From the NCBI RefSeq assembly GCF_003334765.1, contig NZ_QOWT01000002.1: a stretch of DNA of 64,000 nucleotides; one strand, written 5' to 3'. The position numbers and the translations under genes were made by a program. Of this stretch, positions 49,281-64,000 are shown piece after piece; position 1 is the stretch's first letter, and each line of letters begins with the position of its first letter. Source of the stretch: Escherichia coli. GTDB taxonomy: Bacteria; Pseudomonadota; Gammaproteobacteria; Enterobacterales; Enterobacteriaceae. The notes under the pieces are model-generated. The model made no database searches and was not told the origin of the DNA. It worked only from the letters and a program-made list of their open reading frames with translations.

Positions 49281-49380
49281 TGCCTGATGCGCTACGCTTA
49301 TCAGGCCTACGTGGATCGATCAATTTATTGAATTTACACAATTTTGTAGGCCGGATAAGGCGTTCACGCCGCATCCGACA
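49281..49380. repeat. REP pair (BIME) between convergent narP and ccmH
   Basis: tgcctgatgcgctacgcttatcaggcctac and gtaggccggataaggcgttcacgccgcatccgaca. Confidence 0.85.
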
Positions 49381-49409
49381 TAAACTAAGCGCACTTTGTC
49401 AACAGTCTA

Positions 49410-61851: not shown

Positions 61852-61985
61852 CACTAAAAGAGCAGGTAAAATTGTCTGAATGTTCTTTAAGTTATTCATA
61901 AAGCAAATTAATAAATCTGATGAATATGTTAACCTTCAGCGACATCATCGGTGAAAACCTATAAATGAAGAAGGAAAGCAAAAAA

Positions 61986-62474
61986 ATGAAGACCATTCTA
62001 CCTGCAGTATTGTTTGCCGCTTTCGCTACCACTTCCGCCTGGGCGGCAGAAAGCGTCCAGCCACTGGAAAAAATCGCGCCTTATCCACAAGCTGAAAAAG
62101 GGATGAAGCGTCAGGTGATTCAGTTAACCCCGCAAGAAGATGAATCTACCCTGAAAGTAGAACTGTTAATCGGTCAGACGCTGGAAGTCGATTGCAATTT
62201 GCATCGTCTCGGCGGGAAGCTGGAAAACAAAACGCTGGAAGGCTGGGGCTATGATTATTATGTCTTTGATAAAGTCAGTTCCCCGGTTTCAACGATGATG
62301 GCCTGCCCGGATGGCAAGAAAGAGAAGAAATTTGTCACCGCGTATCTGGGCGATGCTGGAATGCTGCGTTACAACAGCAAGCTGCCGATCGTGGTGTATA
62401 CGCCAGACAATGTAGATGTGAAGTACCGCGTCTGGAAGGCGGAAGAGAAAATTGACAACGCGGTAGTTCGCTAA
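61986..62474 (+). CDS. eco: Ecotin (periplasmic serine protease inhibitor), 162 aa from [10 protein letters not shown]...; track ORF begins 7 codons upstream
   Basis: Signal peptide; recognised ecotin sequence. Confidence 0.94.
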
Positions 62475-62476
62475 AC

Positions 62477-63070
62477 TGCCGTGAAGTGCGGCACCCCGTA
62501 GGTCAGACAAGGCGGTCACGCCGCATCCGACATCCAACGCCCGAGCCGGTTGCCTGATGCGACGCTGGCGCGTCTTATCAGGCCTACACCGCTGTGAAGT
62601 GCTCCACCCCGTAGGTCGGATAAGGCGGTTACGCCGCATCCGACATCTAACGCCCAAGCCGGTTGCCTGATGCGACGCTGGCGCGTCTTATCAGGCCTAC
62701 ACCGCTGTGAAGTGCTCCACCCCGTAGGTTGGATAAGGCGGTTACGCCGCATCCGACATCCAACGTCCGAGCCGGTTGCCTGATGCGACGCTGGCGCGTC
62801 TTATCAGGCCTACACCGCTGTGAAGTGCTCCACCCCGTAGGTCGGATAAGGCGGTTACGCCGCATCCGACATCTAACGCCCAAGCCGGTTGCCTGATGCG
62901 ACGCTGGCGCGTCTTATCAGGCCTACACCGCTGTGAAGTGCTCCACCCCGTAGGTTGGATAAGGCGGTTACGCCGCATCCAACATCTAACGCCCGAGCCG
63001 GTTGCCTGATGCGACGCTGGCGCGTCTTATCAGCATACGCCACATCCGGCATACCATGCCGGATGTGGCG
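62477..63070. repeat. Large BIME: five tandem 113-bp units, each a pair of inverted REP palindromes, ending in a perfect 15-bp-stem hairpin (63038-63070) adjacent to the mqo stop
   Basis: tgcctgatgcgacgctggcgcgtcttatcaggcctac recurs at 62551, 62664, 62777, 62890 and 63003 (period 113 bp), alternating with gtaggtcggataaggcggttacgccgcatccgaca-type REPs. Confidence 0.9.
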
Positions 63071-63075
63071 CATCA

Positions 63076-64000
<925 letters not shown>

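Follow-up and report, generated by a model that had tools for sequence, protein, structure and literature searches.

BIMEs fall into two classes (Ton-Hoang 2012). A BIME-1 consists of a z1 and a y REP, is found in single copy and has a long L linker that often contains an IHF site. A BIME-2 consists of z2 and y REPs; its copies are multiple and tandem, the linkers vary, and strains differ in the number of copies at a given locus. The BIME-2 class was defined in the 1990s. BIME-1 elements are depleted in gyrase sites, with 3 observed and 9 expected (Sutormin 2019, supplement). The same study found that gyrase cuts Y REPs far more often than Z2 REPs, and that the gyrase signal at REPs persists under rifampicin; with transcription blocked it goes up, not down.

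REP325 is a BIME-2 array between yjdM and yjdN, associated with naRNA1-6. For naRNA4 a part in HU-dependent condensation of the nucleoid was proposed, and it was suggested that REP325-homologous sequences could do the same (Qian 2015). A recent preprint found no measurable compaction by REP325, which it describes as a partly Rho-dependent attenuator and mRNA stabiliser that produces a ladder of hairpin-ended transcripts (Harris 2026). According to the same preprint, expression is higher in convergent gene pairs with REPs between them than in pairs without REPs, and REPs have no general effect on mRNA half-life, the effects being widely spread.

Bidirectional intrinsic terminators can lie between convergent genes. 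In this class both mRNAs have their 3' ends at a single GC-rich hairpin, and flanking A/U tracts are typical.

The array described here lies between eco and mqo in a window of 64,000 nucleotides of Escherichia coli DNA. It is a BIME-2 array, annotated as REP161 in EcoCyc, and as such is already known and ordinary; for the K-12 locus there are published data on gyrase cleavage, on RNA 3' ends and on Rho dependence. It is among the largest BIME-2 arrays in E. coli and makes a clean worked example. The locus is very probably best explained as a REP161 BIME-2 array accompanied by a locus-specific hairpin, which is a gyrase site in DNA, a structured 3'UTR with shared mRNA ends in RNA, and which varies in 113-bp steps. 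The observations of a preliminary description, made from the sequence of the window, were confirmed in every detail, and its interpretation was right except in regard to IHF.

The spacer and its repeat units

The spacer between the convergent genes is 601 bp long (62475-63075), from the eco stop codon at 62472-62474 to the mqo stop codon at 63076-63078 on the minus strand. The gene names come from the annotation of the 100% identical locus of E. coli strain 300709; 1,885 bp at the locus are 100% identical to strains 300709 and NCTC86. The genes and repeat elements are as follows.

61986..62474, plus strand: eco (ecotin) coding sequence, 162-aa form starting at 61986, in an ORF of 61965..62474
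62475..62497, plus strand: leader spacer, a variant of the 23-nt Z2-to-Y spacer (ACTGCCGTGAAGTGCGGCACCCC), from unit alignment and fold
62498..62531, plus strand: Y REP 1, the most divergent copy, GTAG-first
62552..62587, minus strand: Z2 REP 1 (iREP on the plus strand), exact consensus; IS621 target ATCAGGCCTAC at 62577-62587
62611..62644, plus strand: Y REP 2
62665..62700, minus strand: Z2 REP 2; IS621 target at 62690-62700
62724..62757, plus strand: Y REP 3
62778..62813, minus strand: Z2 REP 3; IS621 target at 62803-62813
62837..62870, plus strand: Y REP 4
62891..62926, minus strand: Z2 REP 4; IS621 target at 62916-62926
62950..62983, plus strand: Y REP 5
63004..63039, minus strand: Z2 REP 5, with a degenerate tail (..TTATCAGCATACG), lacking CTAC and the IS621 target
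63076..64000, minus strand: mqo (malate:quinone oxidoreductase), last 307 codons and stop; the gene runs past the end of the window

The start codon of eco differs between RefSeq records, being placed either at 61965 (510 nt) or at 61986 (489 nt, MKTIL..). Over its last 307 codons mqo encodes the same amino acids as in K-12, and the frame is open up to 64000. The truncated mqo implied by a 257-aa ORF with a GTG start (63076-63849) was therefore rejected as an artefact of ORF listing.

Tandem Repeats Finder reports a single array at 62481-63033 with a period of 113, 4.9 copies, 95% matches, 0% indels and a score of 1015. In a repeat search, the copies of a 226-nt repeat are spaced start to start by exactly 113, 113 and 113 nt. 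The spacer is thus almost entirely made of a 113-bp unit repeated five times, with the regular 113-bp period that had been described. Each of the five units contains two REPs in opposite orientation, again in agreement with that description. A unit consists of a Y REP of 34 nt (GTAG-first on the plus strand), a linker of 20 nt, an inverted Z2 REP of 36 nt and a spacer of 23 nt.

The REPs were compared with the Z2 and Y consensus sequences quoted in PMC11208160. The Z2 consensus GCCTGATGCGACGCTGGCGCGTCTTATCAGGCCTAC has four exact matches here and none in 100 shuffles of the window. The Y REP differs from the published Y at 3 of 34 nt, and two of these mismatches form a compensatory pair in the stem. 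On the plus strand GTAGG precedes all five Y REPs, and CTAC follows four of the five Z2 REPs. The fifth Z2 tail has GCATACG in place of GGCCTAC.

There is no difference between units 2 and 4, and four positions distinguish unit 3 from both, so that units 2-4 differ among themselves at 0-4 positions; unit 1 is the most divergent, with nine differences. Unit 3 resembles unit 5, and there is a weak super-period of 226 bp (62588-62813 compared with 62814-63039). This pattern would be expected if a two-unit block had been duplicated, and the alignment of the units suggests such a duplication.

All of the sequence features by which BIME-2 is defined in Ton-Hoang 2012 are found in the array. It is composed of y and z2 REPs (four exact Z2 and one with a degenerate tail), the REPs and iREPs are inversely oriented with GTAG 5' of the palindrome, the tandem copies are well conserved (4.9 copies at 95% identity), and the copy number varies from strain to strain (1 to 7 units). 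The likeness to BIME-1 or RIB/RIP elements is that both have a Y REP with an inverted Z-type REP and lie at the 3' ends of transcription units. However, BIME-1 has Z1, a long L linker with an IHF site and a single copy, none of which is seen at eco–mqo, and the depletion of gyrase sites is a feature of BIME-1, not of this array. The preliminary description had stated that such arrays bind IHF. This statement does not hold, because the IHF site belongs to the L linker of BIME-1 whereas the array is a tandem BIME-2 of y and z2, and because the IHF consensus WATCAANNNNTTR, which has 4 matches in the 64-kb window, has none in 62475-63075. An IHF-binding BIME-1 (RIB/RIP) element shares with this locus only a general likeness to REP clusters; the second REP here is Z2 rather than Z1, the L linker and IHF consensus are missing, and BIME-1 occurs singly (Ton-Hoang 2012). 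We give this identification practically no chance of being correct.

REP325 is the closest sister array. Like the eco–mqo array it is a tandem series of Y, linker, inverted Z2 and spacer, with Y first in the sense of the upstream gene. It has six units in K-12, and the units of both loci pass the naRNA4 covariance model. The two arrays differ in their period (100 bp in REP325, 113 bp here), in the linker (13 and 20 nt) and in the spacer (17 and 23 nt). REP325 also lies between co-directional genes and has no terminal locus-specific hairpin, whereas eco and mqo are convergent.

The Rfam family naRNA4 (RF02564) matches all five units on the plus strand, with scores of 76, 76, 74.2, 63.7 and 61.9 bits, all above the gathering threshold of 59.5 bits; on the minus strand the score stays below it, at no more than 41.6 bits. 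The model represents one BIME-2 unit of REP325, so the matches reflect shared repeat ancestry and not function. The array could alternatively be a gene cluster for naRNA4-like small RNAs, in which Y-Z2 RNAs would bind HU, bridge DNA cruciforms and condense the nucleoid. The plus strand, on which the five matches lie, is the strand transcribed from eco, and the proposal for REP325-homologous sequences (Qian 2015) would extend to this locus. The Rfam model, however, is simply one REP325 unit, the linker of the present array exceeds that of naRNA4 by 7 nt, and the function of naRNA4 is disputed even for REP325 (Harris 2026). Such a cluster seems very improbable to us, and naRNA4 matches in annotation should be read as marking BIME-2 units, not a specific small RNA gene. 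The attenuator and stabiliser described for REP325 would be the best available model for the eco–mqo array at the RNA level.

The 'replication risk sequences' (RRS/TRIP1) were also considered. These are GC-rich repeats of 222 bp about 650 kb from dif; the array has a double unit of 226 bp and lies about 715 kb from dif. This identification was rejected, as the RRS/TRIP1 sequences lie at dusC and lysO and not at eco–mqo.

The regularity of the repeat also produces a chain of overlapping ORFs across the array (37, 55, 67, 78 and 122 aa), which had been called spurious. They are annotated in none of the 18 RefSeq records fetched for the locus, and each frame of the array contains 6-12 stops. The period is not a multiple of three (113 mod 3 = 2), and each gain or loss of a unit would therefore shift the frame. 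On these grounds the ORFs were rejected as protein-coding: they are artefacts of the GC-rich repeat and should be treated as such in annotation.

The whole spacer folds far better than shuffled sequences, with z = -7.6 on the plus strand and -9.0 on the minus strand. The leader spacer forms a small 6-bp hairpin at 62477-62493 in the fold. A promoter scan found none in the array.

Other REPs are present in the window. A Z-type tail and a Y head at about 49300-49381 are probably another BIME. There is a Y-like head at about 42188-42202, and a Z-type tail on the minus strand at about 12139. The Rfam search also found, above threshold and unrelated to the array, a tRNA gene at 45491-45564 and an L25 (rplY) ribosomal-protein leader at 41750-41775.

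Copy number among strains

The length of the spacer was determined in 18 records, anchored on the stop codons of eco and mqo. Alleles of 1, 2, 3, 4, 5, 6 and 7 units were verified, which bears out the proposal that copy number varies between strains.

1 unit, spacer of 148-149 bp: O157:H7, E2348/69, IAI1
2 units, spacer of 262 bp: D9
3 units, spacer of 375 bp: CEC15
4 units, spacer of 490 bp: EC6
5 units, spacer of 591-601 bp: the window, 300709, G8
6 units, spacer of 714-716 bp: MG1655, DOC14, HS, strain 38, LR882493
7 units, spacer of 829 bp: a BL21(DE3) derivative, C288, 23CRST042

NCTC86 has five units, as judged from the 1,885-bp span at 100% identity. Isolate 372_BP0083 has one unit in a spacer of 139 bp, with a 10-bp deletion within its (last) Z2 REP.

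A one-unit query covers 3,565 of 5,424 genomes (66%) contiguously, which corresponds to one unit or, rarely, two; the remaining genomes are multi-unit. With a five-unit query, an evenly spaced sample of 60 rows contained 37 with one unit and four with five units. The five-unit allele is therefore a minority form. Several units are present in K-12, HS and B-like genomes. The reference strains with one unit we take to belong to phylogroups B2, E and B1. With the phylogroups assigned in this way, expansions seem to be concentrated in phylogroup A.

REP161 of K-12 MG1655 and W3110 has the same locus, flanking genes, unit sequence and terminal hairpin as the array of the window. It differs in having six units in a spacer of 714 bp, compared with five units in 601 bp. 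In K-12 the counterparts of units 1-5 of the window are units 1 and 3-6, and the extra copy there is a duplicate of unit 1.

Changes in copy number always involve whole units, which fits slippage or unequal exchange between the repeats. TnpA-REP has the cleavage motifs TGCC/TGAT and GGCC/TACA (Ton-Hoang 2012), with the stroke at the cleavage position. The first motif occurs five times and the second four times in the array, once per unit, so that a route through TnpA-REP also fits; the data fit both mechanisms alike. Changes of 113 bp at a time would arise from slippage or unequal recombination of the near-identical units, from the action of TnpA-REP, or from both.

The sequence ATCAGGCCTAC is the natural bridge-RNA target of IS621 (Durrant 2024). 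Four targets lie in the array on the plus strand (62577, 62690, 62803 and 62916), and the window has two more, at 49300 (plus) and 12139 (minus). In the three-unit allele of NZ_CP195377.1, IS621 is inserted within the tail of a Z2 REP, at spacer positions of about 224-1506. The insertion point reads ..ATCAGGCCT, then IS621, then AC.., with CT at both junctions.

The multi-unit array might have no function for the host. It would then be a selfish or neutral expansion of the REP doublet, drifting in one lineage, with the effects on gyrase and RNA as by-products. The prevalence of essentially one unit (66% of genomes) fits this, as does the distribution, with one unit in the B2, E and B1 reference strains and several in K-12, HS and B-like genomes. 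The 0-4 differences among units 2-4 point to recent amplification, and the IS621 insertion in the array is tolerated. However, a one-unit core of Y, Z2 and hairpin is kept in every genome examined, and the gyrase cleavage and mapped RNA ends described below are biochemical activity at the locus. We consider an expansion without host function possible, though on balance not the probable explanation, and retain the reading of the array as a gyrase site and structured 3'UTR.

The terminal hairpin and transcript 3' ends

A hairpin closes the array on the mqo side.

63035..63073, no strand assigned: terminal hairpin, with a perfect 15-bp stem at 63038-63052 / 63056-63070 and the loop ACC
63031..63076, no strand assigned: convergent-transcript overlap zone, transferred from MG1655 2305063-2305108 with the mqo stop as anchor

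The hairpin cgccacatccggcat-acc-atgccggatgtggcg (63038-63070) was located exactly where the preliminary description had placed it, with its perfect 15-bp stem ending 5 nt before the mqo stop. A stem of 18 bp forms if one mismatch on the plus strand is allowed; in mqo-sense RNA this mismatch becomes a G-U pair. Folding energies are -29.8 kcal/mol (plus) and -34.0 kcal/mol (minus), with z of about -7. The hairpin is found at one place per genome, always at the mqo end, in 3,184 of 3,184 closely matching genomes, and it adjoins mqo in every allele examined.

This hairpin does not belong to the REPs: the stem is perfect, GTAG is absent, and the element is single-copy and locus-specific. That it is a non-REP element, already listed as the eco:mqo bidirectional terminator, had been missed in the preliminary description. 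Its arms resemble the 3' arm of the Y REP: Y copies at other places in the window match them over 15 nt with 2 mismatches, and the canonical Y arm differs at 1 position in 15. Given this resemblance, we infer that the hairpin may be REP-derived, with two Y 3' arms joined foot to foot. An outgroup search of genome contigs with the exact 22-mer of the hairpin found nothing. With the 17-mer core, the matches listed were only chance ones in unrelated taxa, with no palindrome or REPs.

The stem varies between strains. In K-12 it is perfect over 18 bp (GGCGTAT, compared with GGCGCAT in the window); it has 14 bp in O157, 13 bp and a loop of 5 nt in B2, and a CC bulge in B-type genomes. Compensatory double changes in the stem were not seen among the alleles examined, so it is conservation and not covariation that supports the stem. 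Strain G8 (NZ_CP060057.1), which has five units, carries a 10-bp deletion between CATAC direct repeats, equivalent to 63040-63049 of the window. This deletion removes most of the left arm and makes G8 a natural hairpin-less variant. With about one unit in 66% of genomes and no left arm in G8, the extra units, and perhaps the perfect stem, would be dispensable.

Table 16 of Harris 2026 lists the hairpin as bidirectional terminator no. 365 (eco:mqo, REP161, 'Convergent', MG1655 2305063-2305108), with a stem of 18, a loop of 3 and -33.4 kcal/mol. There are 2 A and 2 U in its 8-nt flanks. The table re-uses reference 47 of the preprint, a study of 306 bidirectional terminators. Transferred from MG1655, the 3' end of the mqo mRNA lies at about 63031 on the minus strand, about 4 nt beyond the stem, and that of the eco mRNA at about 63076 on the plus strand, about 3 nt beyond the stem. 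The study of 306 terminators is, we believe, that of Ju et al. 2019. Since the eco mRNA ends at the hairpin, the whole array is eco 3'UTR. This 3'UTR ranges from about 149 to 829 nt between alleles, and the mqo side is constant.

A scan for canonical intrinsic terminators found none in the spacer on either strand; the hairpin has the stem but no U tract. It resembles the bidirectional terminators in marking the 3' ends of two convergent mRNAs. It differs from that class in lacking the flanking A/U tracts and in its unusually long perfect stem of 15-18 bp. With few U in the 3' flank and no canonical terminator, the 3' ends may be due to processing or protection as much as to termination, and the 'terminator' may really be a processed end.

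The proximity of the hairpin to the mqo stop codon raises a translational reading. In this, the terminating ribosome must unwind the stem and would stall, so that less Mqo is made. The stem starts 5 nt (15-bp form) or 2 nt (18-bp form, in mqo-sense RNA) after the UAA, its position next to mqo is kept in every allele examined and in the 3,184 genomes, and such an effect has been described for REPs no more than 15 nt from a stop codon. According to Liang et al. 2015, as cited in PMC12306157, a REP lowers translation of the gene upstream of it only when fewer than 16 nt separate it from the stop codon of that gene. At mqo the hairpin begins 2-5 nt beyond the stop, and at eco the first Y REP begins 24 nt beyond it. 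By this rule a brake on translation would be plausible for Mqo but not for ecotin. Against it, the hairpin is not a REP, mqo does not appear as a tested case in the accessible literature, and the natural variants weaken the stem (13-14 bp, bulge, arm deletion) with no evident compensation. That the hairpin acts chiefly on translation is accordingly doubtful in our view. Such an action is compatible with the preferred reading, in which the hairpin defines shared mRNA ends, and does not exclude it.

Gyrase, Rho and the role of the array

The experimental data on the eco–mqo locus are all from K-12 derivatives with six units. In the Topo-Seq data of Sutormin 2019 (supplementary DS3), the locus is listed as BIMEs2, 654 bp, eco>-<mqo, with 11 cleavage sites with ciprofloxacin, 7 with rifampicin and ciprofloxacin, 2 with microcin B17 and 5 with oxolinic acid. 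This published in vivo cleavage in K-12 upholds the suggestion that gyrase acts on the array. The same data set cites 'Espeli, Boccard 1997: 6 cuts' for this BIME-2, and six is also the number of Y REPs in K-12.

Rho-dependent termination has been mapped at the eco side of the locus.

~62455, minus strand: Rho-dependent termination peak, mqo-sense, antisense to the last 20 nt of eco, transferred from MG1655 2304374

At minus-strand position 2304374 the Rho score is 4.64 (p = 1.5e-5), and downstream reads number 38 without BCM and 238 with BCM (Adams 2021, supplementary file 2). The region is antisense to eco, and therefore some mqo-sense transcription passes the hairpin and crosses the array. 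Adams 2021 contains no mqo entry at the locus, only this antisense-eco Rho region. REP161 is absent from the table of the Rho-binding screen of Harris 2026, its sole occurrence in that work being Table 16.

These data suggest how the array would act at two levels. In DNA, for the K-12 allele, the Y units are sites of strong, transcription-independent gyrase cleavage, and the array is therefore a gyrase loading site where the converging positive supercoils meet. At the RNA level the mRNA ends are seen in K-12: the eco mRNA carries the entire array as a highly structured 3'UTR and ends at the hairpin, and the mqo mRNA stops at the same hairpin from the opposite side. As the hairpin has no U tract, these ends would probably result from inefficient termination, from arrest of exonucleases at the stem, or from both. 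Transcripts that read through in the mqo sense are halted by Rho within the array or just past it.

The polymorphism of 1 to 7 units may further be imagined as a heritable dial, which would set the length of the eco 3'UTR (about 149-829 nt) and the number of gyrase sites, combined with an invariant hairpin that would throttle the termination of Mqo translation. We rate this combination as improbable. If it were true, the number of repeats alone would make strains differ in the expression of ecotin and Mqo, or in their local supercoiling. The alleles from 1 to 7 units, together with the hairpin-arm deletion and the IS621 insertion at a bridge-RNA target, form a natural allelic series, which is a convenient test bed for the effects of tandem REPs on a convergent gene pair.
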